This document shows positions 1 through 19,150 of a DNA stretch of 22,186 bases, one piece after another (position 1 is the first letter of the stretch; each line of letters opens with the position of its first letter). Both the position numbers and the translations under genes were made by a program. The notes beneath the pieces were generated by a model that saw nothing but the letters and a program-made list of their open reading frames with translations, had not been told where the DNA came from and did not search any database. Source of the stretch: Tumidithrix helvetica PCC 7403 (lineage in GTDB: Bacteria > Cyanobacteriota > Cyanobacteriia > Pseudanabaenales > Pseudanabaenaceae); contig NZ_CBDDRA010000004.1 in assembly GCF_965232925.1 (NCBI RefSeq), positions 4,222 through 26,407 on the forward strand. Direction: 5' to 3'.

Positions 1-319
1 ACAGAGTAGCACTATGCAACAGCCGATGGTTCCAGTAGTAGAGATAGTCAACCACAGCGAAACTGAATAGGAAACTCAAAAGTGGTGACACGATGAGGCA
101 GCCCGATTGACTCGGTAATAGCCATTGATAGGTCTGAGCCAGCAGCGTTATCTGTAAAAGCGGAATAAGAACGCCCTGAATCGCCAACCCCGCAAGATCT
201 AGCAACCATTCCTCGCCGCTTTTGGTTTTGATTTGCGTGCGCCCCACTCGATTCGCCCAGGTCAGTGCCATCAGCCCCCAAAACGTTACAAAAACTGGAA
301 ATTGGATGAGGTAGGACAT
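1..319 (-). CDS. Fatty acid hydroxylase / sterol desaturase superfamily membrane di-iron protein, N-terminal part only (gene continues past the left edge)
   Basis: Absent from the ORF track because there is no stop in the window. The ATG is at 319..317, 4 nt after the stop of the Rieske gene. My manual translation stays open down to position 2: MSYLIQFPVFVTFWGLMALTWANRVGRTQIKTKSGEEWLLDLAGLAIQGVLIPLLQITLLAQTYQWLLPSQSGCLIVSPLLSFLFSFAVVDYLYYWNHRLLHSATL. Hydrophobic helices are followed by DYLYYWNHRLLH, the first histidine box (HRxxH) typical of this family. Confidence 0.7.
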   Translation of the reverse strand, partial: MSYLIQFPVFVTFWGLMALTWANRVGRTQIKTKSGEEWLLDLAGLAIQGVLIPLLQITLLAQTYQWLLPSQSGCLIVSPLLSFLFSFAVVDYLYYWNHRLLHSATL

Positions 320-323
320 GCCC

Positions 324-1352
324 TTAAACCCAAAATGTCACGGATACTGACCGATCTGGCAATTCACGCGGATCTTTTCCCTGAGCGATCGCTGCCCGAA
401 TCGATTCCACAAATACATGAATGGTATCCGCAGGTGTATGGGCAAACTTCGTGCCATACTTGGCGATCGCTTCTCCCTGAATGCCCAAAATTTTAATGTC
501 TTGATGAATAATGCGCTGAGCCGTCCACCATACCAGCGGACGCGCCAGTTGATTCCAAAGACCATAGTTGTAGGTAACATCGGTGTAAACCAGCGTGGAG
601 AGTTCGGTTTCGGGAATGGATTGACTCGTAATCAGGAGTTGGCGATCGCGCCCTAAGATATATTCCACAGAGGTGATATTGGGCATATAAAAGCAATCCC
701 GATGTTTAATTTCCGCACCCTGTCCGTTTAAAAATCGAGTATACCAGCCCAGATTATTGGTTTCATGGTGATATTCCACCAGTACAGCCCCCTGCCGTCG
801 TTCCACCTGCATCGCTAGCTGCTGCTGCCTTGCTGTGCGAAAGATGCCTGGATGTACAAAGGCAGTGTGAGGAATATCGATAAAGTTCTCAACACAATTG
901 GTGACATTATTGGCAAAACGATTGATCGTCCGCACCGTCTCCCAGCCTGTTTCACGATAGTGCGGCATGGCAAAGGGGCGCGATGACTTTGGTGTGGCGC
1001 TCAAGCGCACGTAGATATAGCCATCCTGCTCGCAGGTGTCGTACCGCTTTACCTGTCTGGATTTTTCCTGTTTGAACGCAGTGCCCTCGGCGGGTATAGC
1101 AACGACATTGCCCTCGCGATCGTACACCCAGCCGTGATAAGGACATTGCAAAGTGCCTTGACAGACTTGTCCCTGAGATAAACGACTGTGGCGGTGCAAG
1201 CAGCGATCGCGCAATGCTACTGCCTGTCCATCCTTGTCGCGAAATATCACGAGCCATTCATCCAAAATTATCCGCGCTAGTACCGTATTAGGGCGCAAGC
1301 GATCGCTTAAAGCGACAATGTACCAAAAGTCCTCGAATCCCATGCCTGTCAT
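324..1352 (-). CDS. Rieske [2Fe-2S] non-heme iron oxygenase, alpha-subunit-only type (PaO/Tic55/phthalate-family-like)
   Basis: Rieske motif CLHRHSRLSQGQVCQGTLQCPYHGW (CxH...CxxH). Mononuclear-iron motif NCVENFIDIPHTAFVH (ExxxDxxHxxxxH). I place the start at ATG 1352 (MTGMGFEDFWYIVALSD...), which forms an ATGA overlap with the ferredoxin stop (1349..1351). The 92 extra N-terminal residues of the 434-aa track ORF are low-complexity and overlap the ferredoxin gene. Confidence 0.85.
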   Translation of the reverse strand: MTGMGFEDFWYIVALSDRLRPNTVLARIILDEWLVIFRDKDGQAVALRDRCLHRHSRLSQGQVCQGTLQCPYHGWVYDREGNVVAIPAEGTAFKQEKSRQVKRYDTCEQDGYIYVRLSATPKSSRPFAMPHYRETGWETVRTINRFANNVTNCVENFIDIPHTAFVHPGIFRTARQQQLAMQVERRQGAVLVEYHHETNNLGWYTRFLNGQGAEIKHRDCFYMPNITSVEYILGRDRQLLITSQSIPETELSTLVYTDVTYNYGLWNQLARPLVWWTAQRIIHQDIKILGIQGEAIAKYGTKFAHTPADTIHVFVESIRAAIAQGKDPRELPDRSVSVTFWV

Positions 1353-1639
1353 CCCTCTAGTTTGCGAATCTCCAGATCCGCAGTGAGTTCGATCTGACAG
1401 GCTAAACGTGCATGGGCATGATGGGGAGCCAAGGTGTCTAGCAGTTCTAATTCCTCTGGCTTGGGGGGAGGGATCTTGCCCGTTATCTCCACAAGGCAGG
1501 TGCCGCAAATCCCAGTCCGACAACCAAATAGCACAGGGGAATTTTGAATCGTCAGATGCTCCGACAGGTTTTCTTGGAGGGCTAGGGTAATCGATGGGAA
1601 TTTTGTGCCCGGAAAGTGAATTGTGCAAAGATCAGACAT
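1349..1639 (-). CDS. [2Fe-2S] ferredoxin, probable dedicated electron donor of the oxygenase block
   Basis: Cluster-binding pattern CRTGICGTC (Cx4Cx2C) plus a distal Cys in ARLACQ. Small size. Start taken at ATG 1639 (MSDLCTIHF...), giving an 8-nt overlap with the upstream stop; the alternative ATG at 1666 gives 105 aa. Confidence 0.8.
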   Translation of the reverse strand: MSDLCTIHFPGTKFPSITLALQENLSEHLTIQNSPVLFGCRTGICGTCLVEITGKIPPPKPEELELLDTLAPHHAHARLACQIELTADLEIRKLEG

Positions 1640-2822
1640 CGCCAACACCTTGGTGCTGTCGCTCAAACACCTGAAAAGCTTGGCGTTGCCTTGCCAAATA
1701 TTGGGGAATGGAATTGGCTGCCATTAACGACATTTCCCGATTAATTTTCCAGAGATAATCAAGGGGTTCGACATAAACACGGTAGGATTGCATGGCTTCT
1801 TGGTGGGTTTGATAGCTGCGGTGTAACCCGAGAGTCTCCTCCGTAAAACATTGTCGCATCATAGCTCTGGCTTCGGCAGCTTCCATGCTAAAGATCGGCG
1901 ATCGCAATACCTCATAAATCTTGGCATATAGGGCTGGGTCGTACCAAAAGATGCCGTTGATTGCTGCCGAGAAATGATAATGATCGCGCTGACAGCCCTT
2001 CACGCCCATATTGGCTACGAGGGCTTCAAACGCAGTGGGCGGAGGCAGACAAGTTCCAATATCGTGGGACAGGATCGTAGAACTGTTGAAGTGAAAACTC
2101 TCATCCAAAAAATGATAGTAGGAAATTTTGGCAGGAATGGGAGCATTGTCTGGGTCGGGGTGCTTTTGGTAGTACTGGCTGAGTTTGTGTTGTACCAATT
2201 TGCCATTCAGCGTGCGAATGCCGCGCACTGTGAAATATTGGCAAGCGAGAAAGGTATTGTTGGCAGAAATTAAGCCGAAATATTGGAGTTGTAGCTTTTT
2301 CCACCAGGTTTTCAGGGCAGTGGTATCGGCATAGACCATGGTTTCGGTGAATGGTCCCCGCATCGGATAGGTGAAAAGGTGCCGTCCAAACAGCGCTCGT
2401 TCCACATCCCTAGACACGGTGCGGAAAGCGTGGATGTGGGCGCGTTCCTGAGAGGATTCTAAATCTAAGGTGTCGCAGACTAAACGAAAGTCCTCTTGGG
2501 CGTAAAGTCCAGCGGCACTGGTCTGGTTAAAAAAAATGGTCGCAATTTCGGCGGAAATAATTTGGGAATAATAGGCTACCCAATAAAGTTGGTTGAGTAC
2601 CAGCCGTTGCGATGGACTTGCCTGTTCCCACACAGGCGTACCGTATAGGAGCGAGAACTCTTCAGGATTCCAATACTCATTTTTGCAAGTGTCATAGCAA
2701 AAAGACTGCGCGGCTTCGTCCATCGCGGCGGTGCGATCTTGCTGCCGATTGCGCCTGTAGTTAATCTGAAGTTTGCCATAGGTGGTGGCGTTGTCAGAAA
2801 GTTTCTGGATGGCTTGGTTCAT
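1632..2822 (-). CDS. Soluble diiron-carboxylate oxygenase, AurF (p-aminobenzoate N-oxygenase)-like family
   Basis: IISAEIAT ... 34 residues ... SQERAHIH gives E...ExxH. YYHFLDESFH gives HxxxExxH, the same spacing as the second-half metal ligands of AurF. Start taken at ATG 2822 (MNQAIQKLSD...), 22 nt after the upstream stop, with GGGGAA about 8 nt upstream. The track start at 2885 would overlap the upstream gene by 41 nt. Confidence 0.75.
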   Translation of the reverse strand: MNQAIQKLSDNATTYGKLQINYRRNRQQDRTAAMDEAAQSFCYDTCKNEYWNPEEFSLLYGTPVWEQASPSQRLVLNQLYWVAYYSQIISAEIATIFFNQTSAAGLYAQEDFRLVCDTLDLESSQERAHIHAFRTVSRDVERALFGRHLFTYPMRGPFTETMVYADTTALKTWWKKLQLQYFGLISANNTFLACQYFTVRGIRTLNGKLVQHKLSQYYQKHPDPDNAPIPAKISYYHFLDESFHFNSSTILSHDIGTCLPPPTAFEALVANMGVKGCQRDHYHFSAAINGIFWYDPALYAKIYEVLRSPIFSMEAAEARAMMRQCFTEETLGLHRSYQTHQEAMQSYRVYVEPLDYLWKINREMSLMAANSIPQYLARQRQAFQVFERQHQGVGDV

Positions 2823-2844
2823 AGGATTGTTCCCCAAATTGTCT

Positions 2845-3756
2845 TCACAGGCATCGATCGGGCGGTAGCGGTTCAAAGGCACCACGTTCTGCTAAAGCTT
2901 GCACAATTCCAACTGCGGTTTCGCCTCGCATCAACGATCGCAACAATTGTAGTCTTTTGCCACTGTGGGTTTCAGTCCCTAATTCTTGTAGGATTTGAAT
3001 TTTCTGCGATCGCGTCAGATGTCCCTTAACCTGCTCGATCGCTCCCACCACACTTTGCGGCCCCACCTGCACCATCCGCAAAAATGTTGCTAGCACATCG
3101 GCAATCGCGGCGTGACTTGCTGTGGATCGAGCCATTCGATCGAACAGCGTGAAACCCGTGCTATGGTGACGGGCTTCGGCATGGAGGAAGCTAGAAAACA
3201 GATCGGACAGCCTGCGATCGCCACAGGTTTTAGCTAATTGGCGGTAGTGACCGATCCCCCAACCTTCTAGGACTACCTGAACGACAAAGAGAAGTACGGC
3301 TTTGTCCGCACCATTCACGACATCTGCTAATAGGCGCAAAAAAGGACGATCGCGACTATCTGGTTCTGGAACTGGCAAAAAATGTCCGATTTGACTGAGA
3401 TGGGTGGCTTCATCCGCTGCAAATAGTGCGTATAGCATACGCTCCTCCACCGTTTCTGCCAACAGCACCATCTTTGCCATGTAGCCAACTCCCGCTTTCT
3501 CAATGAAATAGGCTTCTTCTAGCAAGCTCTGATTGGCAAGCTGAAGTATGGTGATTTGTTCTATGTCATCTGCGTCTTGGAATAATTTGACTCGATCCAG
3601 ATTGAAAAATGGCGCGTTCCAGTAAATTCCTTGGGCAGAGGTGTGAATCCCGCGATCGCCACGCTCCTTTAGTGCTGCCGCTAATATTCTTTGCAATGGG
3701 CGATCGTCCTTGGCATGGGGTAAGTCCAGACCAGCAATTCTAAGATCTAAGCTCAT
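2845..3756 (-). CDS. Ferritin-like diiron-carboxylate protein with two E...ExxH motifs, function unknown
   Basis: LLEEAYFIE ... about 35 aa ... ADEATH, then VLEGWG ... 30 aa ... HAEARHH. This is the classical six-ligand four-helix-bundle diiron signature. The ATG at 3756 overlaps the upstream Rieske stop as ATGA. Confidence 0.7.
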   Translation of the reverse strand: MSLDLRIAGLDLPHAKDDRPLQRILAAALKERGDRGIHTSAQGIYWNAPFFNLDRVKLFQDADDIEQITILQLANQSLLEEAYFIEKAGVGYMAKMVLLAETVEERMLYALFAADEATHLSQIGHFLPVPEPDSRDRPFLRLLADVVNGADKAVLLFVVQVVLEGWGIGHYRQLAKTCGDRRLSDLFSSFLHAEARHHSTGFTLFDRMARSTASHAAIADVLATFLRMVQVGPQSVVGAIEQVKGHLTRSQKIQILQELGTETHSGKRLQLLRSLMRGETAVGIVQALAERGAFEPLPPDRCL

Positions 3757-4862
3757 GGGACTTCCCTATCCTCTAAAGCAAGAATGGCAGAAATGGCATT
3801 GTGTGATGGCAAGGGAGGAATATCGCCGCTCTCATCCTGTGGAACGGGTTCCCAAGTCGCCCATGCGATCGCTTTCTGCTGATTAACATGTTGCATGAAT
3901 TGCAGAATGGATCGATCTGCGAAGGTGGGAGTTTTGAGATCGAACTGAATGGTTTGAAACACTTGCGTATCGCCCTTTGCAAAGTAATTACCCACCTGCT
4001 GCGTTAACCACAGTAATATGCGATTTAACGCCCACCCCAAGCAGCCAGCGCGCTTTGGGGTCATCAAAATGGTTTGCCCTTCGGTTTTATTGCCCGCGAT
4101 CGGTCGCAGGGCAAACATAATATAAAAGTGCAGGAAATCAGGCCCCAAGGTTACAGTTCCCGTACTGCCATACCAGTAGCACATGCTGTAGGTGACGGCA
4201 TTGCGGTAGAGAGGGCGAATCAAACGAATCAGCCACGATTCATTTCCTCCCTGCGTGATATTGTTAAATGCAATCGCGTTTTCATGAAGGATTGATTTGT
4301 CAAACACGATCTCTAAGGGAAGATTGTGAACTGTGTTGAAGTGATGAGCATCGATCGCATTGATCAGCAACACATTGGGGTGACAGTTTTTCACAAACCG
4401 AGAACCCAAAACAGAATCCAAGTCGATTCCTTCTAATTCGGGCGCATAGGGCAGCGCGCGTGGTGTTGCTTCTCCCACCCAAACCCAGACCAAACCATAG
4501 ATCTCGGCAGTTCGCCATATTTTTACGCATACGGGTAGCGGTTTTTCGAGTGCGGGCACATCTAAGCAGATTCCTTGCGCGTCATACTTCCAATTATGGA
4601 AAAAACAGCGAAGGTCATCACCATCTACCCTACCCTCGGCAAGATGTGCTCCCATGTGCGGACAATAGGCATCCATCGCTACAGTCTGACCGTTCGCGCC
4701 CCGATAAATTGCCAAATCTCTGCCCATCAGTGTTACGGCTTTCACTTTGCCCACTGGTAGCGATCGCGAAGGGATTGCCCAGTACCAACCTGGTACAAAT
4801 TGTGTTGAGCTATTGAAGTTCAGGTTGGTACTCACAAGAGGTAGAAGTAGCTCCGCAGTCAT
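3753..4862 (-). CDS. Rieske [2Fe-2S] non-heme iron oxygenase (second, divergent copy)
   Basis: Rieske motif CPHMGAHLAEGRVDGDDLRCFFHNW. Catalytic iron motif NAIDAHHFNTVH (DxxHxxxxH). The N-terminus (FVPGWYWAIPSRSL) is typical of alpha subunits. No beta subunit is present nearby. Confidence 0.85.
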   Translation of the reverse strand: MTAELLLPLVSTNLNFNSSTQFVPGWYWAIPSRSLPVGKVKAVTLMGRDLAIYRGANGQTVAMDAYCPHMGAHLAEGRVDGDDLRCFFHNWKYDAQGICLDVPALEKPLPVCVKIWRTAEIYGLVWVWVGEATPRALPYAPELEGIDLDSVLGSRFVKNCHPNVLLINAIDAHHFNTVHNLPLEIVFDKSILHENAIAFNNITQGGNESWLIRLIRPLYRNAVTYSMCYWYGSTGTVTLGPDFLHFYIMFALRPIAGNKTEGQTILMTPKRAGCLGWALNRILLWLTQQVGNYFAKGDTQVFQTIQFDLKTPTFADRSILQFMQHVNQQKAIAWATWEPVPQDESGDIPPLPSHNAISAILALEDREVP

Positions 4863-4863
4863 C

Positions 4864-4891
4864 CCTAAAGCTTATGTCCTAAAGCTTATGT
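4864..4891. repeat. Perfect tandem duplication of a 14-bp unit (CCTAAAGCTTATGT x2) in the 39-nt spacer between the receiver gene and the first Rieske gene
   Basis: Read directly: 4864-4877 and 4878-4891 are identical. Each unit contains the palindrome AAGCTT. On the coding (minus) strand the repeat ends 1 nt before the Rieske ATG (4862). Confidence 0.9.
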
Positions 4892-4901
4892 CAAGACAAT
4901 C

Positions 4902-5282
4902 CTAAACAACATTCTTAATCGTTTCTAACAAGCTGAGGGTACAAGCACCCTTGTCACAAAACGCATCGATTGTCGCACCATTCTCCGTAGCACGAGCTTT
5001 ACCGCCCTCTGCCGCAGAGTAAGCCACAATTTTAATATCGGGATATTGACTTTTAATATAACTAGAGGCTGCCCATCCATCCATCACTGGCATATGCAAA
5101 TCCATCACAATCAGGTCAGGATTGCACTTTTGAGCTTTGGCGATCGCTTCTTTGCCGTTGCTTGCCACTTCCACAGCTTTAATATATGACTGACGCGAAA
5201 GGGCGAGCTTTAACGTACATCTGGTTAACTCGTGGTCATCAACCACTAAAACACGTAAAGGAGATGTTTTTGTGGATGTCAT
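4902..5282 (-). CDS. Stand-alone response-regulator receiver (CheY-like) protein
   Basis: LRVLVVDDHELTR (acidic pocket), DLIVMDLHMPVMDG (phospho-acceptor Asp), KIVAYSA and a conserved Lys region. At 126 aa it has no output domain. Confidence 0.85.
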   Translation of the reverse strand: MTSTKTSPLRVLVVDDHELTRCTLKLALSRQSYIKAVEVASNGKEAIAKAQKCNPDLIVMDLHMPVMDGWAASSYIKSQYPDIKIVAYSAAEGGKARATENGATIDAFCDKGACTLSLLETIKNVV

Positions 5283-5440
5283 AGCGGCTTATTAAATTTA
5301 CTAAAGAGCAAAAATTTTATGTAAACTACTATACTTTCTTTACCTTGAAACGTCTTCTACCGCAAGTTGTATAGTTCCTGCGTAAAAATACTTAGAAGTT
5401 AGAGCTATCTTAAGATTAACTACTAATTTTAGAAGACGAA

Positions 5441-5460
5441 GGGGTGATATATATCACCCC
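5441..5460 (-). terminator. Perfect 20-bp palindrome GGGGTGATATATATCACCCC, probable terminator after the IMPDH gene
   Basis: Lies about 100 nt downstream of the stop at 5558. On the minus strand it is followed by TTCGTCTTCTAAAATT. It also separates guaB from the promoter region of the receiver/oxygenase block. A 9-bp inverted repeat (CGTCTTCTA 5351-5359 / TAGAAGACG 5430-5438) flanks it. Confidence 0.45.
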
Positions 5461-5557
5461 CAAAAACATCATATTTTGGTTAGCCAATGGATTAAGGGGC
5501 TAGCAGCATATTTATACGAATGCATCGCCCTTACACCTAACTTATCCCGAACTGACG

Positions 5558-6721
5558 CTACTTGCCCATACCAAGCTGCTGTGCCTTTTGATAGACTTTG
5601 CCCTCCGTGAGCAAAGATGGTGCGACTACAACTTCTACTTGCTGCATTTCCTTGAGGTTTTTTGCCCCCAAGGTTCCCATACTGGTTTTGAGTGCGCCCA
5701 GCAGATTATGCGTACCATCATCTAAGCCAGCAGGTCCGCGTAAAATTTGCTCGATCGAGCCTGTTGTGCCGACACGAATGCGCGTACCGCGAGGTAAAAC
5801 AGGGCTAGGTGTTGCCATACCCCAGTGAAAACCGCGCCCTGGAGCTTCTTGGGCTCTGGCGAAGGGCGAACCAATCATCACACCGTCAGCACCACAAGCG
5901 ATCGACTTACAAATGTCACCACCTGTGATTAAGCCCCCATCGGCAATAATCGGAATGTATTTCCCAGTTTGGTCGTAAAAATCATTTCTAGCCGCCGCAC
6001 AGTCGGCGATCGCCGTTGCTTGTGGTAGCCCAACGCCCAACACCCCTCTCGAAGTACAGGCAGCACCAGGTCCAATGCCAACCAAAATACCTGCGGCTCC
6101 AGCATTCAGCAGTTGTAAAGTCACTTCGTAAGTAACGCAGTTGCCCATCACTACAGGAATCGGCATCTTACGGCAAAACTCTTCTAAGTTTAGAGACTGT
6201 AAGCCTTCCGCAGAGATATGTGTGGTGGAAACAACCGTAGACTGAAGAAAGAACAGGTCACAGCCTGCTTCTGCTGCGAGTTGACCGTATTTTTCTGCAT
6301 TGGCGGGGGTGCTACTGGCACAGGCGATCGCGCCGCGTGCCTTAATCTCGCGAATCCGTTTCTGAATCAATTCTGGTTTGACTGGCTCGGCATAGAGTTG
6401 TTGCATCAAGCCGACAAATTCGGTCACACCAACCGAGGCAATCTTATCGAGAATTGGCGCAGTGTCTTCATAGCGAGTTTGGATGCCATCAAGGTTAATG
6501 ACGCCAAGGGCACCCAATTGCGATAGCAATACTGCCATCTCAACGTCAACAACACCATCCATGGCACTGGCAATAATCGGGATCTCCCGCTTGATGCCAC
6601 CGATCTCCCAATATGTATCAGCAACATTGGGATCGAGTGTAATGTTTCCTGGAACTAAAGCGATTTCGTCAATGCCATAGGCTCGCCGCGCCGTTTTACC
6701 ACGCCCAATATGAATATCCAC
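5558..6721 (-). CDS. guaB: IMP dehydrogenase family protein, short GuaB3-type without CBS domains
   Basis: N-terminus [35 protein letters not shown], catalytic-loop-like [43 protein letters not shown] start at 6721. 387 aa. Confidence 0.85.
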
Positions 6722-6951: not shown

Positions 6952-8238
6952 CTAAACCAAAGCGAAATTGGAAACTGGAACGGCATGGCTTAAAAATTGT
7001 AGGGCTTCTGCCAAAAACGAGCTTGCCTGTAGGCTTGATGTTACATGCGCAGGAGAAGAAACGGTTAAAGATAGCCGATCGCCTAGGGTGGCAACCCCAA
7101 CAATCCGCTCTTGTTCCATCCCAGCCATCACAGCAGGACCATAAAGTGATTCGATTTGGAGTGAGCCAAACTGTTGCTCTAGGTTCAATCGTCCTAGATT
7201 GGTCACCAAGAGATCGTAGCCATACTGTTGCTGCATTCCCTGTACCATTACTTGTGCCGAGGGGAGCGTGGCGATCGCGGCTTGGCGGGGTGGGATGACC
7301 TCAAATAATCGGTGTAGCATCATTGCCTCAGATAATTGGGACTTGAACGATCGGGCAATCTCCCACAAGGTTGAATCAAATGGCAACTCGTGGTTGGTCA
7401 GCCCATAGGTGATATACAGTCCCACGGCTTCCCCCACAGTTGGCATCAGATGCGATCGCACGTTAATCGGTGACAGACATTTAAGCTGAGACGATGTAAC
7501 TCCCTTTTGACCTGCGAGAGCGAGTAAAAATGCGGCAGCGATCGCGCCATGCACGCTCGTTTTTTGCTCTCGGCAGCGATCGTTTAACGCCCAAGTCAAC
7601 TCAGCGGACAACAGGGCAGTGCGGATATGCGGACGCGGACGGGTAGACACCTCCGTACTATACCCAGATGACAAGGCTTCCTGCTGAGGAGTTCCTGCAG
7701 GGGGTGCTGACAATTTTTCGTCCATGCTTGGCACGACGGATTCGATTGGGAAAGACTCAGATAGCTCCCTTGTCATGGGTAAACGAACGACTGGCAAATC
7801 GGACTCTAATCCTTGCACAATATCGCGAATTAAATAGGCAACTGACATTCCATCTGCGATCGAGTGATGGCAGGTCACAATTAGCTCTGAGCAGATGTCG
7901 GATTGTAGCAGTACAACTCTAGCTAGGGGAGCGATCGCCCAATCAAAGGATTTCGACATTTCCACTTCTAGCTCTCGCTGCCACTGTAGGTCATCTTCTC
8001 GCAGAAGTACGCGTAGGGGAATTTCAGCATTCTGCTCGACAAACTTGGGTCGTCCAGACTTGTCCAGCTCAATGCGTACTCTTAGCAGGGGGTGCAGCTG
8101 TTGAACTCGTGTGAGGGACTGGCGAAGTCGATCGATACTAAATTTGTTACGGATTTTGGCACTGAGGGCAAAATGTAGGGGATGAACCTGGTCATACAAC
8201 CAAAATGAATGCTCAAATGCTCCAAGATGACGCTCCAT
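6952..8238 (-). CDS. Stand-alone condensation-domain / PapA5-like acyltransferase
   Basis: Catalytic HHxxxDG motif in VTCHHSIADGMSV (residues 124-130). About 428 aa, the size of a single C domain. No A or T domain is fused. Confidence 0.75.
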   Translation of the reverse strand: MERHLGAFEHSFWLYDQVHPLHFALSAKIRNKFSIDRLRQSLTRVQQLHPLLRVRIELDKSGRPKFVEQNAEIPLRVLLREDDLQWQRELEVEMSKSFDWAIAPLARVVLLQSDICSELIVTCHHSIADGMSVAYLIRDIVQGLESDLPVVRLPMTRELSESFPIESVVPSMDEKLSAPPAGTPQQEALSSGYSTEVSTRPRPHIRTALLSAELTWALNDRCREQKTSVHGAIAAAFLLALAGQKGVTSSQLKCLSPINVRSHLMPTVGEAVGLYITYGLTNHELPFDSTLWEIARSFKSQLSEAMMLHRLFEVIPPRQAAIATLPSAQVMVQGMQQQYGYDLLVTNLGRLNLEQQFGSLQIESLYGPAVMAGMEQERIVGVATLGDRLSLTVSSPAHVTSSLQASSFLAEALQFLSHAVPVSNFALV

Positions 8239-8405: not shown

Positions 8406-9626
8406 TTACGGCAAATTTGCAGGGGTTCTCGCAAAGTTCGCTGGATCTTGATCGCGCCGATGCTGGACGGGAATGGGCGTGCCCTGACCATTACCGTCCA
8501 AAGCAGCCGTTTTTTCCAAGGCTTCCCTTAGGCGTTTGGCGGCATAGATCGACATGTCACGGGGTACGCTGATGCGATCGCGTAAATAGCGCAGAGCAAT
8601 ATCAGAACCTTTTGGCGGTATACAGACTTCGCCTGTCATCATCAGGGTTAGTGCACAGCGCAGAGCTTCATCAACTAAGCGGTCATCGGCGGGGTTGACG
8701 CGAATAATATTCGTGCGATGTTTGAGCATCCGTTGCAATGCCTCAGTTCGGGAGGTTTCGGGCTCTGGGTAAGTCACATCTGGCAGACCATCCCAAGGAC
8801 CGCAATCCACTCGTTCCTTATTGAGTAGCGTTTGGGGTTCGCCATTTTCCCAACAGCCTCCCATTTGGGGGGGGAGATCGTGGGCGTGGGTATGAAAATC
8901 GCTCTGCGTGCCGCGATAGGTGGATCGGCTTTCCATCGCGGCAAACCAATCTGCCAAGCGAGGATTCTCTTCCCTGAGAGAATAGCCCTTGTAGTAGTAA
9001 AGACTGGCATTCATGCGTTCGACATAGGGTGTAAAGATGACATCCGCAGTCCCAAATTCTTCCAAAAAGTAGGGACCTGGGGTGCTGCCTAGGGCACTCT
9101 CAACCATCTCAACTACGCCGATAAATTGGTCGCGATGGCGTTGCTCTTCTTTGAGCGATCGGGTTGGTTGGCAAAGCCAAGAGCACCATGCTCGAAATAG
9201 CAATCGCTCTAGTCGTCTTAGGGGGAGCACAGTGGGGTCTTCCATACCGCGCCCCAAAATGCCAAACACCTGTTCTAGGGCGATCAAAATATCATCGCTT
9301 TCCTTGATAACGCGACCGTCTAGCGCGATCGCAGGGAGCATTCCCGATGGCACAATGCGCTTGTACCAGCTTTCTTTTTCGCCATAGCAAAACATCGTGA
9401 CTTTTTCGATGCGATAGGGGATCTGCTTTTCTTCTAGCCACAACCAGATTTTCTGACAGTAGGGGCACCAGGCATGGTTGTCACGATAAAGCGTCACCCG
9501 CGCATCAGATTCGGTATGACCAAATAGACGCAACCGCGCTTGGGCATTGGTGGGACCATTGACGGGATCGACTTGAAAATCTGTGAGTGCTTCTAGTTCT
9601 TGCCAGCTTAAGGGGGCGATCGTCAT
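8406..9626 (-). CDS. Glutathione S-transferase family protein with a glutaredoxin-like CPYC N-terminal domain
   Basis: [33 protein letters not shown] ... [18 protein letters not shown] is a thioredoxin-fold GSH-binding pattern. It is followed by a long helical C-terminal region. Confidence 0.65.
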
Positions 9627-10753: not shown

Positions 10754-11083
10754 TTAAGATCCGCGTCCAAAGCGAACCTCGTATACCTCTTCTTCTTTTT
10801 CGGTGACAACTTCTAGATCTGATTTGGGGTAGGAAACGCAGAGTAAAACATACCCTTTGGCATCTAAAGCTTCACCCATGCCGCCTATGCCCATACCTTT
10901 ACTTTGATCGACTTCGCCAGAAATTACCTGAGCCGCGCAGGTCGTACAGACGCCTGCGTAGCAAGAGCAGGGTAGGTCTACGCCTTGCTCGTGGGCAGCG
11001 TCTAAAATCGATTGGGACTCAGGTACGGCGATCGTGTAAATTTGACCTTGATGGTTCAGCTTTACTGTGTAGGTCTGACTCAT
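10754..11083 (-). CDS. Plant-type [2Fe-2S] ferredoxin with an internal insertion and a C-terminal extension
   Basis: YTVKL..., CSCYAGVCTTCAAQVISGEVDQ, LLCVSYPKSDLEV. Compared with canonical PetF of about 98 aa, it has extra GMGIGGMGEAL and a VYEVRFGRGS tail. Confidence 0.85.
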   Translation of the reverse strand: MSQTYTVKLNHQGQIYTIAVPESQSILDAAHEQGVDLPCSCYAGVCTTCAAQVISGEVDQSKGMGIGGMGEALDAKGYVLLCVSYPKSDLEVVTEKEEEVYEVRFGRGS

Positions 11084-13950: not shown

Positions 13951-14296
13951 CTAGTTGAAATAACTGAATCGGACTTGTGAGGTGTCGATCGATGATAATC
14001 TCCGCCGATACCACGCTCAACTTAGATCTCGACGAACAAAAGCAACTTTACGCCAGTTTAGGGATTGCGGAATATTGGGTAATTGATGTGAAGGGAATGC
14101 GGCTCTTTTCTTTGCCTTTGGTTTGGGGGTAGCGGGTGTGTATGAGACCATCGAAGTTTCGCAGGTACTGAAGGGATTAGCGATCGCACTGATAGAAAAA
14201 CCCCTCGAACGCTTAGCCACAGAAACGAATACAGCCGTCTCGAATTGGTTAATGCAGCAGTTGCAAACAGAGTTCCCATCTGGCAAGAAAGATTAG
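13951..14296 (+). pseudogene. Decayed Uma2-family (DUF820) endonuclease remnant: C-terminal half only, split over at least three frames
   Basis: Frame fragments: LVEITESDL* (13951-13980); MIISADTTLNLDLDEQKQLYASLGIAEYWVIDVKGMRLFSL...* (13992-14132), which carries the family's K..Y...GI.EYWviD signature; then GVYETIEVSQVLKGLAIALIEKPLERL... to the stop at 14294-14296 in another frame. The N-terminal ~100 aa are missing. Confidence 0.5.
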
Positions 14297-14485
14297 TTAA
14301 TTGCAATGCGTAAAAACGAATAATAAAGGTACATTCATGTTGTTTGGCTTTGTTATATGGATATCTCAAACCCTTTCACAAGCAAGATTCTCAATGGGAT
14401 GAAAGCTTTATTGATGAGCCCTTGTCTATCAATTCTTCTAGAAAATCTGACTGAATGATACAACAAAACCCGAAGAATCACTTTT

Positions 14486-14938
14486 CTAAAGAAAAGTACC
14501 TAAATTTCTTAGCTCTTTCAGATTTTGACAAAACTGGATAAATCTCGATGTTGCATTTGGATTGCTTCCAATTAGTTGAGTTAGGGTATCTGCTAACATA
14601 TCTCGTCTCTTTTTCATAGCCAAGTAACTTTGACGTCCACCTTCAAAATTGGATTCAATCAACTCGTACGGAAATTGATCGAGTAGGAAGTTGAATATAT
14701 GCTCGGAAATTCGTAAATAAGCTAATCGCTTAAAGTATCGATTCATGTATTTAGACTCAGTCCGATGAACTTGAACCGAAGCTCTATGACCATCTCTGTA
14801 GGATTCATCTTGAATTACAAGACATCCTTTCTTATTGGGATTGTCTTCTTGACAAGAAAGGGTAATCTGTTCCAGAATTTCTAAATAAGTTTCTAAAAAT
14901 TCTTTGTAATTTCTAGCTTCCATAGTTGGTAATTCCAT
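14486..14938 (-). CDS. Hypothetical protein (orphan, in a visibly AT-rich segment)
   Basis: 150-aa ORF with no competing ORF. Predicted helical, no recognisable family. No HIP1 sites in or around it. Confidence 0.5.
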   Translation of the reverse strand: MELPTMEARNYKEFLETYLEILEQITLSCQEDNPNKKGCLVIQDESYRDGHRASVQVHRTESKYMNRYFKRLAYLRISEHIFNFLLDQFPYELIESNFEGGRQSYLAMKKRRDMLADTLTQLIGSNPNATSRFIQFCQNLKELRNLGTFL

Positions 14939-15051
14939 TAAGTTGTGGCTCTATACTTTCCACAACCATTGAAACCGATTGTATCAGTAATAATCATTTA
15001 CTGAAATCCTCTGTTTTAGATGCGATCTCGTTCGTTTTGAGCCAATTGACG

Positions 15052-16338
15052 CTACAAACCTGTAACTGGGGGTAAGTGGGGGGCAGAGATAAAGAAGCCC
15101 GTTAAAAAGCCCATAATCGTGGAGAAAGCTACCGAACCACCGCCGAGTTCGTAGGCTTCGGGCATCATCGTGCTGGCTAACATTGCCAAAATGGCTCCAC
15201 CTGACACAGCCTGAGCGAGAGCCACCACTAGCTCGGAAGTGTTTGCTGCTAGTATATTTCCCAAGAGCGCACAGAGTCCGCTCAGTACAATCACACCTGC
15301 CCAAAGCAAAATAATCCGAAGATTTTTTGTGCCTGCTTGCTTCATGCCAATCGAGCTAGAGAGCGCTTCAGGGAAATTAGAAATAAACACTGCCATCAAA
15401 AAAGACCAACCCACATGCCCTGGTTGCGCCGTCATCCCAATCACCGTGGATTCGGGAATGCCGTCAATTAACGTCCCTACCAAAATCGCCAAGGGAGCCG
15501 AACTTTTCACCAGCCCTTGAATCATTTTTTGTTCTTCGGAAGGGGAGAGATCGATTTCCACGCTATCGATCGCTTGCTGCCGCCACAGGTCTAAATTTTG
15601 CTCTGCCTCAGCTCTTGATGCCGTCGTCGATCGCAGTCGCTTGGCTAGGGCTCGACTGAGCGCATTGGAAATACTGGGGGATTTCAACAGCACATCATCG
15701 AAATGCTCTTGTTTGAGTTGATAGACATCCATATCTGTACTCGCCACCACTGTGGCCGATCGCGGTGCGCTGTTCAGCAATGCCATTTCACCAAATACCT
15801 CCCCTGCGCCAAGGGTCGTCATCACCTTTTCCCCTTTCTTCACCTCAGCTTCACCATGGATGATCATGTAGAATGAATCCCCCTGATCGCCTTCATGAAA
15901 GAGGGTTTCACCTTCCTTGACCGTGATTGGTTTCAGCAAAGGTACGATCGCTTGGGCTTCTGAAGGCGGCAAATTTTGCATCACCTCGACATGGGCAATG
16001 CGATCGAGCACATCACCCGTTTCTTCTTGGCGGTGTTCAAACAAATAGCGGCGGCGAGAAGAAGCTTTACGCAAAAAGCCCCCTTTATCATCGACAAAGC
16101 GGGTAATACCAATAAATAGCCCCCCACCAATCAAAAAACCGATCAACAGGGGTAAAAAGCCACTTTCTCGATAAGCACTAATGGTGGTTTCAAAGGCAAG
16201 CGCAGACAGTAACGTACCACTGCCAAATGCCATAATTGCGGCGGATAGGACTCGGCTCGGTTGCCAAACAATGCCCAGCAACGCACCCAATCCCGAACTC
16301 AACGCTGCCAGTAATCCCTGAAGAAAAGCATCTAGCAT
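15052..16338 (-). CDS. ZIP-like (ZupT/GufA-like) membrane protein with a cyclic-nucleotide-binding domain inserted in the central cytoplasmic loop
   Basis: About 3 N-terminal TM helices. A cNMP-binding beta-roll (FHEGDQGDSFYMIIHGEAEV ... GEVFGEMALLNSAPRSATVVA). C-terminal TM bundle with ZIP-like motifs LIDGIPESTVIG and AVFISNFPEALSSS. Confidence 0.7.
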   Translation of the reverse strand: MLDAFLQGLLAALSSGLGALLGIVWQPSRVLSAAIMAFGSGTLLSALAFETTISAYRESGFLPLLIGFLIGGGLFIGITRFVDDKGGFLRKASSRRRYLFEHRQEETGDVLDRIAHVEVMQNLPPSEAQAIVPLLKPITVKEGETLFHEGDQGDSFYMIIHGEAEVKKGEKVMTTLGAGEVFGEMALLNSAPRSATVVASTDMDVYQLKQEHFDDVLLKSPSISNALSRALAKRLRSTTASRAEAEQNLDLWRQQAIDSVEIDLSPSEEQKMIQGLVKSSAPLAILVGTLIDGIPESTVIGMTAQPGHVGWSFLMAVFISNFPEALSSSIGMKQAGTKNLRIILLWAGVIVLSGLCALLGNILAANTSELVVALAQAVSGGAILAMLASTMMPEAYELGGGSVAFSTIMGFLTGFFISAPHLPPVTGL

Positions 16339-16540: not shown

Positions 16541-19150
16541 TCAAACATGGGCATAGAGTTTTGGACGATATCGGCTTTGGGCTCGCTCTAAACAGAGATT
16601 AAAATCTTTTGCCAATGCTGCGACATGGGGTTCCTGAAACATCAATGGATGAGATCCAGGTACATCAAACATTTCCAGTGGTTCAGAAGTCCTTTTGCTC
16701 CAAGATTTATAATGCGCCACGATCGCCCATTCTTGGTAAACCTCGCGATCGGTAGGTTGAAAGAAGGTGATTTTTCCCGAATAAACCGATGGGTTATAGA
16801 TCTTCGTCGCCTCTCGATGCGCCGCAATCAGCTCTGAGTTTCGTAAAGGATTGGCAATAAACTCAATTGCAGTAGATTTTTGAAAATACTTAGCGACGCG
16901 ATCGTATAAATATTGGAAGCCAAACTGAAGCGTATAACGGAAGTGACGGGCAACCTTTTGATGCAATCGAAAAGGCTGGCGATCGCCCTCGGCAAAGGTA
17001 TCAAATAACGCCAACAGCGCTACCTCTTCATGATTTCGGTGTAGTTGTTGGGCAATCTCAAAGGCAACAAGTCCACCAAACGAATATCCCATCAGGTAAT
17101 AAGGTCCCTCTGGTTGAATTGTCCGAATCTCGGCGAGATAGCGTTCAGCCATGGCTTCTACCGTACTTAGGTGTGGCTCTTGTTTGTTATACCCCTGCGC
17201 GACTAAACCGTAAAAGGGCTGATCGGAACTTAAGTGATTGGCAAACTGGCGATAGCACATGGCTCCGCCGTAAACATCATGAATTCCAAACAACGGGGGC
17301 TTACTACCATCTGGCTCGATCGCAAGGAGCAGAGAGTGCGTGTCAAAGGTTGATGTTTCTTGTTGCGCGAGAATATTGGCAAGATTTGCGATCGTCAGCG
17401 TTTTGAAGATGGTGTCAGGAGCCAAAACGGTATTAAAAGCTTTTTCAATTTGAGTTAGTAAGCCTACTGCCTGTAGCGAATCTCCTCCTAAAGCAAAGAA
17501 ATTATCGTCAATACCAATCTGTTCGACGCCCAACACATCAACCCAAATTGCGGTTAAGGTTTTCTCAACGGAGGTCTTGGGGGCTACAAATTCCTGCTTG
17601 AGATGAGATGCCAAGACTTGAGCTAGCCCAATTCGCTGGACTTTTCCATTTGTACTCTTTGGAAGGTCGTCTAGGAATACAATTTGACTGGGAACCTTAA
17701 AGCTGACTAATTGTGTAGAGGCAAATTCTCGGATTTCTTCGACTGTAGCCGATATGTAAGGCTTTAAAACCACGGCAGCGGCAATGTCTTCACCCAAGCG
17801 AGGATGGGGTACGGCAAACGCCACTGCTTGGGCAATCTTTGGATGTTTTAACAGCACTTGGTCTATTTCGTTAGGAGCAACTTTTTCACTACCGCGATTG
17901 ATTAATTCCTTAATGCGACCGATCAAAAAGAGATAACCATCCTCATCCAGATAGCCCCGATCGCCTGTCCTAAACCAACCATTTGTAAACCCTTGACTAT
18001 TTGCCGTTGGATTTGCTTCATAGCCGTTAAAGACATTGGCTCCTTGCGTGACAATTTCTCCCGCTTGATGGGGCTGTAAGAAGTTACCAGTTTCATCCAC
18101 GATCGCAATTTTGGTATTGACGGCTCTACCGACCGAGCCAACTTTGCTCTGAAGTGGTGGAAGGGAATGACAGGCAATCTGATAAGCTTCTGTCAATCCA
18201 TAGGCTTGCGTAAAGGTTGCACTAAAAGTGTTTTCTAACTCATAAATCAAATCGGAAGAGATGGCAGCAGAAGATGAACGGATTAATCGCAACGAGCACT
18301 GACGCAGATCTCGATCTTGCTGTTTTGCCGCAGCGATCGCGGCTTGATGCAAGGTGGGGACAGATGTATACCAAGTCGGTTGGAACTCTTCTAGCCAATC
18401 AAAAAAGTGATTTGGGTTAAACCCAGGTGTGGAAACGACACTCGCACCAGCACCGATCGATGACAATAAGGCTCCCAATAGTCCATGACTATAAATGAGA
18501 GGCATGACGATCAGACCGCGATCGCTCGGTTGCAAGTTCAATGCCAAGCGAATATTCCTTGCGGCGCTACAGAGATTGAGATGGGTCAGTGGAACTATTT
18601 TGGGCTGTCCTGTCGTACCCGATGTATGTAAAATCAGAGCTTGGTCATTGGGTTCTATAATATGCGGCTCAGGTGCTGGTTGACTAGCTTCTCCAGCTAA
18701 TAGAAAACAGCCTGCATCTCGATCTTCTAAAGGAATTAGTTCAATGATTTTAAGTTGGCAAGCCTTAGCAGCCTCTCTAGCAGAGGGGTTTAGCCCTTCT
18801 CTAACAATCAGGAACTTAATCTTAAAAGTGGTAAAATATCGTTCGAATTCCGCTTGGGTAAATCGAGGGTTTAGGGGAGCGCTGACCGCACAAGAGCTAA
18901 TAGCAAGGAAGGCAACTGCCATTTCTGGACTCTCTGGAAGCACAAGGGCAACGCGATCGCTTCTACCCACACCCATTCTTCTGAGTATCTCTATGGTTCG
19001 ATCGATCTGAATCTTCAAGCTTCCATAGGACAGAGGATCTCGAGACGGAGCAAGTATAGCCGTTGCTTCTGGTGTTTTTTTATCCCAAATAGCCACCATT
19101 TCATAGATAGTTGAGAACTCTGCATTAGGATTGGCGTTCAATGTGTTCAT
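16541..19150 (-). CDS. NRPS-like tridomain enzyme: adenylation (ANL) - thiolation (PCP) - thioesterase
   Basis: A domain: LHTSGTTGQPKIV, YGLTEA, GEIVTQGANVFNGY, WFRTGDRGYLDEDGYLFLIGRIKELINRGSEKV, PKSTNGKVQR. PCP: FFALGGDSLQAV (Ser558, codon about 17477-17479). TE: GYSFGGLVAFEIA (GxSxG, Ser690). Confidence 0.9.
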   Translation of the reverse strand: MNTLNANPNAEFSTIYEMVAIWDKKTPEATAILAPSRDPLSYGSLKIQIDRTIEILRRMGVGRSDRVALVLPESPEMAVAFLAISSCAVSAPLNPRFTQAEFERYFTTFKIKFLIVREGLNPSAREAAKACQLKIIELIPLEDRDAGCFLLAGEASQPAPEPHIIEPNDQALILHTSGTTGQPKIVPLTHLNLCSAARNIRLALNLQPSDRGLIVMPLIYSHGLLGALLSSIGAGASVVSTPGFNPNHFFDWLEEFQPTWYTSVPTLHQAAIAAAKQQDRDLRQCSLRLIRSSSAAISSDLIYELENTFSATFTQAYGLTEAYQIACHSLPPLQSKVGSVGRAVNTKIAIVDETGNFLQPHQAGEIVTQGANVFNGYEANPTANSQGFTNGWFRTGDRGYLDEDGYLFLIGRIKELINRGSEKVAPNEIDQVLLKHPKIAQAVAFAVPHPRLGEDIAAAVVLKPYISATVEEIREFASTQLVSFKVPSQIVFLDDLPKSTNGKVQRIGLAQVLASHLKQEFVAPKTSVEKTLTAIWVDVLGVEQIGIDDNFFALGGDSLQAVGLLTQIEKAFNTVLAPDTIFKTLTIANLANILAQQETSTFDTHSLLLAIEPDGSKPPLFGIHDVYGGAMCYRQFANHLSSDQPFYGLVAQGYNKQEPHLSTVEAMAERYLAEIRTIQPEGPYYLMGYSFGGLVAFEIAQQLHRNHEEVALLALFDTFAEGDRQPFRLHQKVARHFRYTLQFGFQYLYDRVAKYFQKSTAIEFIANPLRNSELIAAHREATKIYNPSVYSGKITFFQPTDREVYQEWAIVAHYKSWSKRTSEPLEMFDVPGSHPLMFQEPHVAALAKDFNLCLERAQSRYRPKLYAHV

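Follow-up and report, generated by a model that had tools for sequence, protein, structure and literature searches.

Gene organization of the locus

The window, that is, the whole stretch of 22,186 nucleotides (nt) analyzed here, comes from the cyanobacterium Tumidithrix helvetica PCC 7403, and the CylC-like protein that it encodes is 100% identical to a protein of this strain. Its first 5282 positions carry seven consecutive minus-strand genes, coding for a stand-alone receiver, two Rieske oxygenases, two soluble diiron proteins, a ferredoxin and a membrane-bound oxygenase. Each of these reading frames had been called in a first-pass annotation made from the sequence alone and was found again at its coordinates, and all the gene junctions and the spacer repeat reported there were likewise present. 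Positions 1–4862 hold what is, as read from packing, gene order and synteny, the first six genes of a predicted eight-gene operon, and sequence comparison indicates that the PCC 7403 locus is a reduced copy of a known orphan cyanobacterial cluster, the fed6 or Rieske-containing CylC-homologue cluster. Taken jointly, the eight-gene orphan cluster, its reduced form and the lipid-oxidation mechanism proposed below probably describe the locus correctly, although with a considerable margin of doubt.

From its upstream end, the block opens with a CheY-like receiver of 126 amino acids (aa) (4902–5282; Pfam Response_reg 1.8e-19), which is separated by a 39-nt spacer (4863–4901) from Rieske oxygenase 1 (3753–4862; 369 aa; Pfam Rieske 1e-22). 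The gene for a ferritin-like diiron protein (2845–3756; 303 aa), assigned by motifs and sub-threshold Pfam matches, overlaps that of Rieske 1 in an ATGA (3753–3756), and a 22-nt gap (2823–2844) leads to the gene for the CylC-like dimetal-carboxylate enzyme (1632–2822; 396 aa), identified by a precomputed match to PF28091 and by motifs. The latter gene shares 8 nt (1632–1639) with that of a 2Fe-2S ferredoxin, presumably of the Fed6 (ssl2559) type (1349–1639; 96 aa; Pfam Fer2 1e-8), which in turn overlaps the gene for Rieske oxygenase 2 (324–1352; 342 aa; Pfam Rieske 1e-22 and VanA_C 8e-10) in a second ATGA (1349–1352). A 4-nt gap (320–323) then leads to the gene for a 247-aa membrane His-box enzyme of the FA_hydroxylase/sterol-desaturase family, of which the window holds the first 106 codons (1–319) before the gene runs out of it. 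The metal-binding motifs are intact throughout the oxygenase set.

Such gaps of at most 22 nt or overlaps of 4 or 8 nt, together with the absence of terminator-like sites between the operon genes in a consensus scan of the window sequence, point to an operon-like structure; the counts of the promoter and terminator scans were not above those in shuffled sequence. Consensus scanning found no convincing sigma-70 site in the AT-rich intergenic region of 275 nt that lies 5′ of the receiver gene (5283–5557, minus strand), and this region, judged by its position, is most likely the promoter region of the block in PCC 7403. An Rfam scan of the whole window returned zero RNA families.

Past the left edge of the window, the block continues on an overlapping metagenome (Logan) contig, L001. 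The fragment at 1–319, which carries the first His box (NHRLLH) and has no Pfam match by itself, agrees at 100% identity with the N-terminal part of a 247-aa FA_hydroxylase on this contig, and the full-length protein matches its Pfam family at 1e-24 and contains three His boxes (HRLLH, HQVHH and HAWHH). Directly after it follow a hexapeptide-repeat transferase (210 aa), with a hydrophobic N-terminal stretch, and a GH3 protein (513 aa), the two junctions being overlaps of 4 nt and 26 nt, and then a convergent gene. The earlier statement that no scaffold-forming enzyme is present was thus an effect of the window edge.

Conservation of the cluster across cyanobacteria

The gene order had been taken as unrecognized, which does not hold, since it was described as the fed6 "cluster f" in 2014 (PMC4284462) and as the "Rieske-containing" biosynthetic gene cluster in 2021 (PMC8406957). 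Cluster f of Cassier-Chauvat and Chauvat comprises a hypothetical gene, a Rieske gene, two hypothetical genes, fed6, a pobA-type Rieske gene and a sterol desaturase gene (PMC4284462). In the survey of Eusebio et al. in BMC Genomics, the Rieske-containing class is the commonest setting in which CylC homologues occur (36 of 95 clusters), has neither a known product nor a carrier protein, and is suggested to act on substrates from fatty-acid metabolism (PMC8406957). The Synechocystis orthologues are sll0263–0266, ssl2559, sll1297 and sll1510–1511 according to Table S4 of that work, in which two of the comparison loci used here, those of PCC 7113 and PCC 6304, are also named.

The PCC 7403 locus resembles this class in gene content, in order and in sequence. 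It has two Rieske proteins, within the class range of two to four, one CylC homologue, and a ferritin-like protein, a ferredoxin and an FA-hydroxylase in the conserved order; no carrier protein and no FAAL (fatty-acyl-AMP ligase) was found in 1–5282, on L001 or in the two annotated loci of PCC 7113 and PCC 6304. The succession of Rieske protein, ferritin-like protein, CylC homologue, ferredoxin, Rieske protein, sterol-desaturase-family protein and acyltransferase is shared with the class and with cluster f, and the PCC 7403 proteins are 63–78% identical to those of catalogued Rieske-containing clusters. The differences lie at the upstream end, where PCC 7403 has two Rieske genes instead of three or four, lacks a 243-aa protein, an Mpo1-like protein and an amidohydrolase nearby, and carries the receiver at the upstream position.

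A genome scan with one genome per species gave 304 species representatives with a relative, and 82 loci, namely the 80 best of these 304 (all cyanobacteria) plus two found by protein identity, were scored for gene presence by tblastn with the proteins of the window. The CylC-like gene is present in all 82 loci, the ferredoxin gene in 79, the ferritin-like gene in 78 and Rieske 1 in 76, followed by Rieske 2 (68), the FA-hydroxylase (58), the hexapeptide transferase (56) and GH3 (49). Across these loci, the genes nearly always share a single strand and follow the sequence Rieske, ferritin-like, CylC-like, ferredoxin, Rieske, FA-hydroxylase, with median identities of 78% for the CylC-like protein, 74% for Rieske 1 and 72% for Rieske 2 within an overall span of 63–78%. 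The proposal that the genes form a single system is borne out by this core order, which most of the related loci retain.

Fuller clusters carry extra genes upstream of the core: the 243-aa protein in 72 of the 82 loci, a third Rieske gene in 59, an Mpo1-like gene, whose product is a homologue of 2-hydroxy-fatty-acid dioxygenase, in 55 and an amidohydrolase gene in 42. Some of them also contain a GT2 protein with weak similarity to HpnI and a SnoaL-like protein; none of these six genes occurs in the window. In all 72 loci, the 243-aa protein (7153–7884 in L002) is encoded directly 5′ of Rieske 1; it has zero Pfam or NCBIfam matches, and its position maps to Synechocystis sll0263 (Table S4, PMC8406957). 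In two loci, L060 and L067, the SnoaL–GT2–amidohydrolase–Mpo1–Rieske 3 block and the FA-hydroxylase–transferase–GH3 block shift or flip as wholes relative to the core, and these block moves suggest that the cluster is built of three sub-modules.

The CylC-like diiron protein

For the CylC-like gene (1632–2822), the NCBI protein of 396 aa starts at ATG 2822 and another gene caller starts at GTG 2885; the former start is favored on the strength of the NCBI annotation and the alignment with homologues. A start at GTG 2885 would give 417 aa and a 41-nt overlap with the ferritin-like gene. The family to which the protein belongs, PF28091, is small, with only 149 clusters at 50% identity among 1.84 billion representatives. 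Its named distant members are all cyanobacterial (Moorena, Gloeobacterales and Westiellopsis), and non-cyanobacterial contexts of CylC homologues are mentioned in PMC8406957. Identity amounts to 69–81% with homologues across cyanobacterial orders, to 71–75% with the proteins of PCC 6304 and PCC 7113, and to about 30–35% with the family representatives of 450–470 aa.

In the halogenase NocO, the motifs QExxH and HxxDExxH together with two further residues are essential (PMC12101540, which also defines the motifs). The PCC 7403 protein keeps eight of these nine NocO-essential residues in the alignment, with QExxH at Q125-E126-H129, HxxDExxH at H237-D240-E241-H244 and the first Glu ligand at E92. 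Residues E92, E122, E126, H129, H237, D240, E241 and H244 are invariant in an alignment with diverse family representatives, in which Q125 is not. The ninth signature position is occupied by Gln211 instead of Glu (E252 in NocO and the metal ligand E196 in AurF), a putative column equivalence drawn from an alignment in which NocO/CylC and AurF were not identified among the aligned sequences. Gln211 is invariant in 12 members of the clade, and the 450–470 aa representatives have Glu there; a small subset of the halogenase family with Gln at this position has also been noted (PMC12101540). Simultaneously, an insertion of several tens of residues carried by the longer members is absent from the PCC 7403 clade.

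An AlphaFold2 (AF2) model of the CylC-like protein, built from the diverse family alignment, reached a predicted local distance difference test (pLDDT) score of 89.9. The best PDB matches of this model in Foldseek were CmlI, AurF, acyl-ACP desaturases and R2-like oxidases, all of them weak: CmlI had a probability of 0.98, yet the structural matches had E values of at least 0.16, template-modelling (TM) scores of 0.4–0.58 and identities of 13–15%. A PDB profile search with the CylC-like alignment gave zero matches. The predicted fold is that of the ferritin-like diiron superfamily, and the fold matches confirm the superfamily only, with no close solved relative.

The protein had been called AurF-like, and its reading as an N-oxygenase gives way to a better one, since the Pfam AurF match stays below the gathering score (17.8 bits vs 29.6; E about 0.002) and the signature QExxH is of the CylC type. 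The arylamine N-oxygenases AurF and CmlI provide the best structural matches to the model and share its superfamily, but the second-sphere Asp of AurF, which precedes ExxH, corresponds to Gln125 in PCC 7403, as in CylC homologues, Gln211 replaces Glu, the seventh carboxylate ligand, and genes of an aromatic-amine pathway are absent nearby. Compared with the halogenases CylC, BrtJ and NocO, the PCC 7403 protein has the same ferritin-like diiron fold, QExxH, HxxDExxH and the first Glu ligand, and a supply of electrons by ferredoxin would be expected, whereas it is shorter (396 aa), lacks the insertion and has Gln for the NocO-essential Glu. From motifs and clade membership, it is best described as a halogenase homologue of the Rieske-associated (Rieske/PriA) clade, for which halogenation itself is at most predicted.

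This homology supports the view that the locus is a specialized-metabolite cluster, in which the CylC homologue would chlorinate a fatty-acid-derived chain, as in cylindrocyclophane, columbamide and bartoloside formation, and the other oxygenases would decorate a halogenated product that has not been isolated. The PF28091 match and the retained residues, QExxH and HxxDExxH among them, agree with such a role, and the cluster has been filed among biosynthetic gene clusters (PMC8406957). Nevertheless, Gln211, the missing insertion and the lack of an acyl carrier protein (ACP) and FAAL set the protein apart from every characterized CylC-type halogenase: the cognate ACP and acyl-activating enzyme that a carrier-bound substrate would call for are found neither in the PCC 7403 operon nor in the related loci. 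Furthermore, an occurrence in 304 species representatives with the identities given above and fixed synteny is unusual for a strain-specific natural product, and CORASON failed to recover the Rieske-containing clusters (PMC8406957). The halogenated-metabolite explanation is consequently held to be on the unlikely side, while deserving serious attention.

The receiver gene and its spacer

The first-pass annotation had placed the receiver in the system as its possible regulator. All phospho-acceptor residues (DD, D, S and K) are readable in its translation, but not one of the 82 related oxygenase loci contains the receiver, and its orthologues among related Pseudanabaenaceae stand in other contexts. 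These orthologues (identity 91% for that of a close relative, about 76% for Pseudanabaena) adjoin a convergent rhomboid gene, and no oxygenase operon was found in the 20-kb loci around them. The absence from the 82 loci and the position of the orthologues elsewhere place the receiver outside the system; by this comparison it is a bystander, not a conserved component.

Homology to the receiver loci of the relatives stops at the receiver stop codon. In Pseudanabaena, a clean terminator hairpin follows the receiver gene (10379–10440 in L086), whereas the window has a tandem repeat followed by the start of Rieske 1. The repeat is perfect (14 nt × 2.1; ACATAAGCTTTAGG on the minus strand; 4864–4892) and recurs nowhere else in the window, and scanning found no terminator in the spacer at 4863–4901. 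Such an arrangement suggests that a rearrangement fused the receiver and oxygenase transcription units. To judge by their adjacency, the receiver is probably co-transcribed with the operon in PCC 7403, where its transcript may read through.

These observations bear on the original view of the locus as a novel seven-gene, receiver-controlled cassette with an AurF-type N-oxygenase and four unrelated oxygenase folds. The receiver gene does share the strand of the operon and begins the block at a distance of 39 nt, no terminator intervenes, its phospho-acceptor site is complete, and a weak AurF match exists; set against these points are the 0 of 82 loci, the orthologues elsewhere, the sub-threshold AurF score with a QExxH signature and the previous description of the cluster, which leave this view highly improbable.

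The Rieske oxygenases, the ferritin-like protein and the ferredoxin

Both Rieske proteins contain the CxH...CxxH cluster motif and the DxxHxxxxH mononuclear-iron motif, in the forms CPH...CFFH and DAHHFNTVH in Rieske 1 and CLH...CPYH and ENFIDIPHTAFVH in Rieske 2. The nearest solved structure to Rieske 1 is KshA, a 3-ketosteroid 9alpha-hydroxylase (1e-22), followed by SxtDIOX and SxtT, and those nearest to Rieske 2 are SxtDIOX, DdmC and NdmA (about 1e-20). Rieske 1 is the orthologue of sll0264. By sequence, Rieske 2 counts among the alpha3-type monooxygenases/demethylases, its catalytic domain being VanA_C-like, and is the likely orthologue of Synechocystis sll1297, a link drawn from synteny and from Table S4 of PMC8406957, which maps the corresponding gene of Calothrix NIES-22. 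The alpha3-type Rieske monooxygenases (KshA, SxtT/SxtDIOX, DdmC and NdmA) share with both proteins the cluster and mononuclear-iron motifs, a single-subunit architecture and a length of about 340–370 aa, and take their electrons from a ferredoxin or a reductase, but the similarity is limited to the N-terminal 170–290 residues (E 1e-20 to 1e-22). Since this similarity does not extend to a comparison of the substrate-binding regions, the Rieske substrate is not inferable from the solved relatives.

The best NCBIfam match of both Rieske proteins is SdmA, a sterol 4beta-methyl monooxygenase, below the curated cut-off. This match, the proximity of Rieske 1 to KshA and of Rieske 2 to O/N-demethylases, and the fact that the FA_hydroxylase family takes in sterol and sphingolipid oxidases would fit a catabolic or recycling pathway that trims an isoprenoid or branched lipid, such as phytol or phytanic acid from chlorophyll turnover, a hopanoid or a sterol-like compound, by demethylation, hydroxylation and alpha-oxidation. 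The Mpo1-like alpha-oxidation dioxygenase homologue, the amidohydrolase and the HpnI-like GT2 of the fuller clusters would fit as well. However, all of these similarities are at family level and under curated cut-offs, the Tumidithrix copy lacks Mpo1, the amidohydrolase and GT2, and no thiolase or beta-oxidation genes lie nearby, so that a catabolic role appears improbable.

In the ferritin-like protein, the residues E81/E86, E116xxH119, E164 and E194xxH197 do not vary among 29 homologues, and the Pfam families Ferritin_2 and MiaE match below the gathering score (E about 0.002). Sequence and profile searches against the PDB gave chance matches only, hhalign found the protein unrelated to the CylC-like family, and an AF2 model from the 29 close homologues, with a pLDDT of 47, was too poor to use. 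The protein is, as its motifs and position indicate, a member of an uncharacterized diiron family and the orthologue of sll0265. The locus had been credited with five oxygenases, two of them Rieske proteins, from four unrelated folds; the five oxygenases stand, but they fall into three superfamilies, since the CylC-like and ferritin-like proteins both belong to the ferritin-like diiron superfamily, the former placed there by its model and the latter by motifs and sub-threshold Pfam matches only.

The operon ferredoxin has the Cys pattern Cx4CxxC...C; its Fed6 type follows PMC4284462 and Table S4 of PMC8406957, and it presumably supplies the oxygenases with electrons. A claim from 2014 that Fed6 is essential (PMC4284462) was followed by a study that deleted the gene completely; essentiality is not used in the present argument. 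The window contains two ferredoxins in total, the second, of plant type with a 2Fe-2S cluster (10754–11083, minus strand; Fer2 2e-17), being encoded outside the operon.

The GH3 protein and the resemblance to ornithine-lipid synthesis

The GH3 protein on L001 matches its Pfam family at 5e-29 and JAR1/GH3.12 at 5e-12, and is thereby kin to the acyl-acid amido synthetases. It is a candidate scaffold-forming enzyme and might, with the transferase, assemble an N-acyl scaffold starting from a free acid. A bacterial GH3 protein, OlsH, forms N-acyl ornithine from a free fatty acid (PMC12493201), and in the OlsH/OlsI/OlsE ornithine-lipid pathway of planctomycetes and rhizobia, a GH3-type amido synthetase likewise stands beside an acyltransferase and an FA_hydroxylase-family enzyme. 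Such a gene set points to a route in which an amino acid is N-acylated by a free fatty acid and hydroxylation comes next. The differences are considerable: the best NCBIfam matches, OlsH for the GH3 protein (34.2 bits vs a cut-off of 620) and OlsE for the FA-hydroxylase (55.3 vs 475), are far below their cut-offs, the PCC 7403 acyltransferase is of the hexapeptide-repeat type and not an alpha/beta hydrolase, and the described ornithine-lipid pathways contain neither Rieske nor soluble diiron enzymes.

The same likeness underlies the idea that the operon serves conserved physiology, making or remodelling a membrane aminolipid without phosphorus, of the N-acyl amino acid kind, and that it is induced at low phosphate. 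OlsH and OlsE are the best matches and the chemistry of OlsH is established (PMC12493201), the sequences are highly conserved, and ssl2559–sll1297, the orthologues of the operon ferredoxin and Rieske 2, rise 32-fold without phosphate in a PhoB-dependent manner (PMC4195498, PMC11126600). However, the strong response is confined to this pair, whose transcription unit begins in the chemotaxis-like sll1291 operon, so that the induction may be read-through; in the supplementary table, the fold changes are 0.5–1.4 for sll0264–0266 and no more than 2.5 for sll1510/1511. Expression of sll0266 is, in addition, lowered by iron deprivation. An OlsI-like partner is absent, and the low OlsH and OlsE scores make the aminolipid idea an analogy and not a matter of family membership. 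We know of no report of such aminolipids from cyanobacteria. A phosphate-induced aminolipid pathway is thus regarded as unlikely. A bolder variant, in which the Gln211 clade of CylC-like proteins does not halogenate and performs other diiron C–H chemistry on free lipids, the operon making undiscovered oxidized N-acyl-amino-acid aminolipids that would serve the physiology of the cell, for instance when phosphate is limiting, is a speculation to which we give rather little weight; if true, it would amount to a membrane lipid pathway that was missed in a very well studied phylum.

A proposed pathway of lipid oxidation

The most likely function of the operon, reached by inference, is a ferredoxin-driven stepwise oxidation, possibly with chlorination, of a free fatty-acyl or N-acyl-amino-acid lipid. 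Successive oxidative tailoring of a lipid-like substrate, possibly with halogenation, had been suggested in the first-pass annotation as well and matches the proposal in the literature (PMC8406957). In the proposed mechanism, FNR or photosystem I would reduce the dedicated 2Fe-2S ferredoxin, which would hand single electrons to the Rieske clusters and the diiron centers of all the oxygenases. In vitro, NocO, a characterized CylC homologue, needs a ferredoxin, a ferredoxin reductase and NADPH (PMC12101540). The substrate would be a fatty acid in free form, or a fatty-acid-derived lipid, and not a carrier-bound chain, as is suggested by the lack of a carrier protein and FAAL, the kinship of the GH3 protein, the precedent of OlsH, the His-box FA_hydroxylase and the Mpo1-like protein and amidohydrolase of the fuller clusters. 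GH3 would adenylate the carboxylate and couple an amine, probably an amino acid, and the membrane-anchored hexapeptide transferase would add or move an acyl group. Next, hydroxylation, desaturation or demethylation at unactivated C–H bonds would fall to the soluble oxygenases together with the His-box enzyme of the membrane, and the CylC-like enzyme might chlorinate the substrate or, given Gln211, hydroxylate it or perform other chemistry.

Several points weigh against this pathway or parts of it. The OlsH and OlsE scores of 34 vs 620 and 55 vs 475 bits are far under the cut-offs, and steroids, alkaloids and aromatic ethers, as opposed to fatty acids, are the substrates of the solved enzymes closest to the two Rieske proteins, so that by analogy the substrate may also be something other than a fatty acid, for instance an isoprenoid lipid. 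None of the Rieske-containing clusters has a known product (PMC8406957), and no later functional assignment of the class was found in the literature searched. For the chlorination step, the Gln in place of Glu at the ninth position and the missing insertion make halogenation appear doubtful, and we know of no chlorinated lipid from Synechocystis 6803, which carries the orthologues. Furthermore, at the sequence level, identities of 63–78% across orders would suit a pathway of conserved physiology better than the usual kind of natural-product cluster.

Neighboring genes in the window

Upstream on the operon strand lie the genes for a GuaB3-type IMP-dehydrogenase-related protein (5558–6721), a PapA5/condensation-like acyltransferase with an HHxxxDG motif (6952–8238) and a GST-like protein of 406 aa that has a long C-terminal extension (8406–9626). 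A stand-alone adenylation–peptidyl carrier protein (PCP)–thioesterase protein is encoded on the same strand at 16541–19150, 11 kb from the oxygenase operon. The genes for the PapA5-like, GST-like, GuaB3 and adenylation–PCP–thioesterase proteins are present in none of the 82 loci and are accordingly placed outside the system; the PapA5-like and adenylation–PCP–thioesterase proteins could form a separate acyl-transfer system. In addition, the minus strand at 15052–16338 encodes a membrane protein that combines a cyclic-nucleotide-binding domain with a weak, sub-threshold C-terminal match to ZIP transporters, an unusual combination. Positions 14001–15000 have a GC content of 0.38 compared with 0.45–0.52 elsewhere, and contain a 150-aa open reading frame (14486–14938) without a Pfam family.

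Implications

With 304 species representatives, model strains included, the class is among the most widespread oxygenase systems without a known product in cyanobacteria. The interest lies in what this widespread operon makes, and the PCC 7403 copy adds little new by itself; its version indicates that eight genes may suffice for a minimal form. Meanwhile, if the CylC-like enzyme acts on free substrates, it would be an attractive biocatalyst, as has already been pointed out (PMC8406957).

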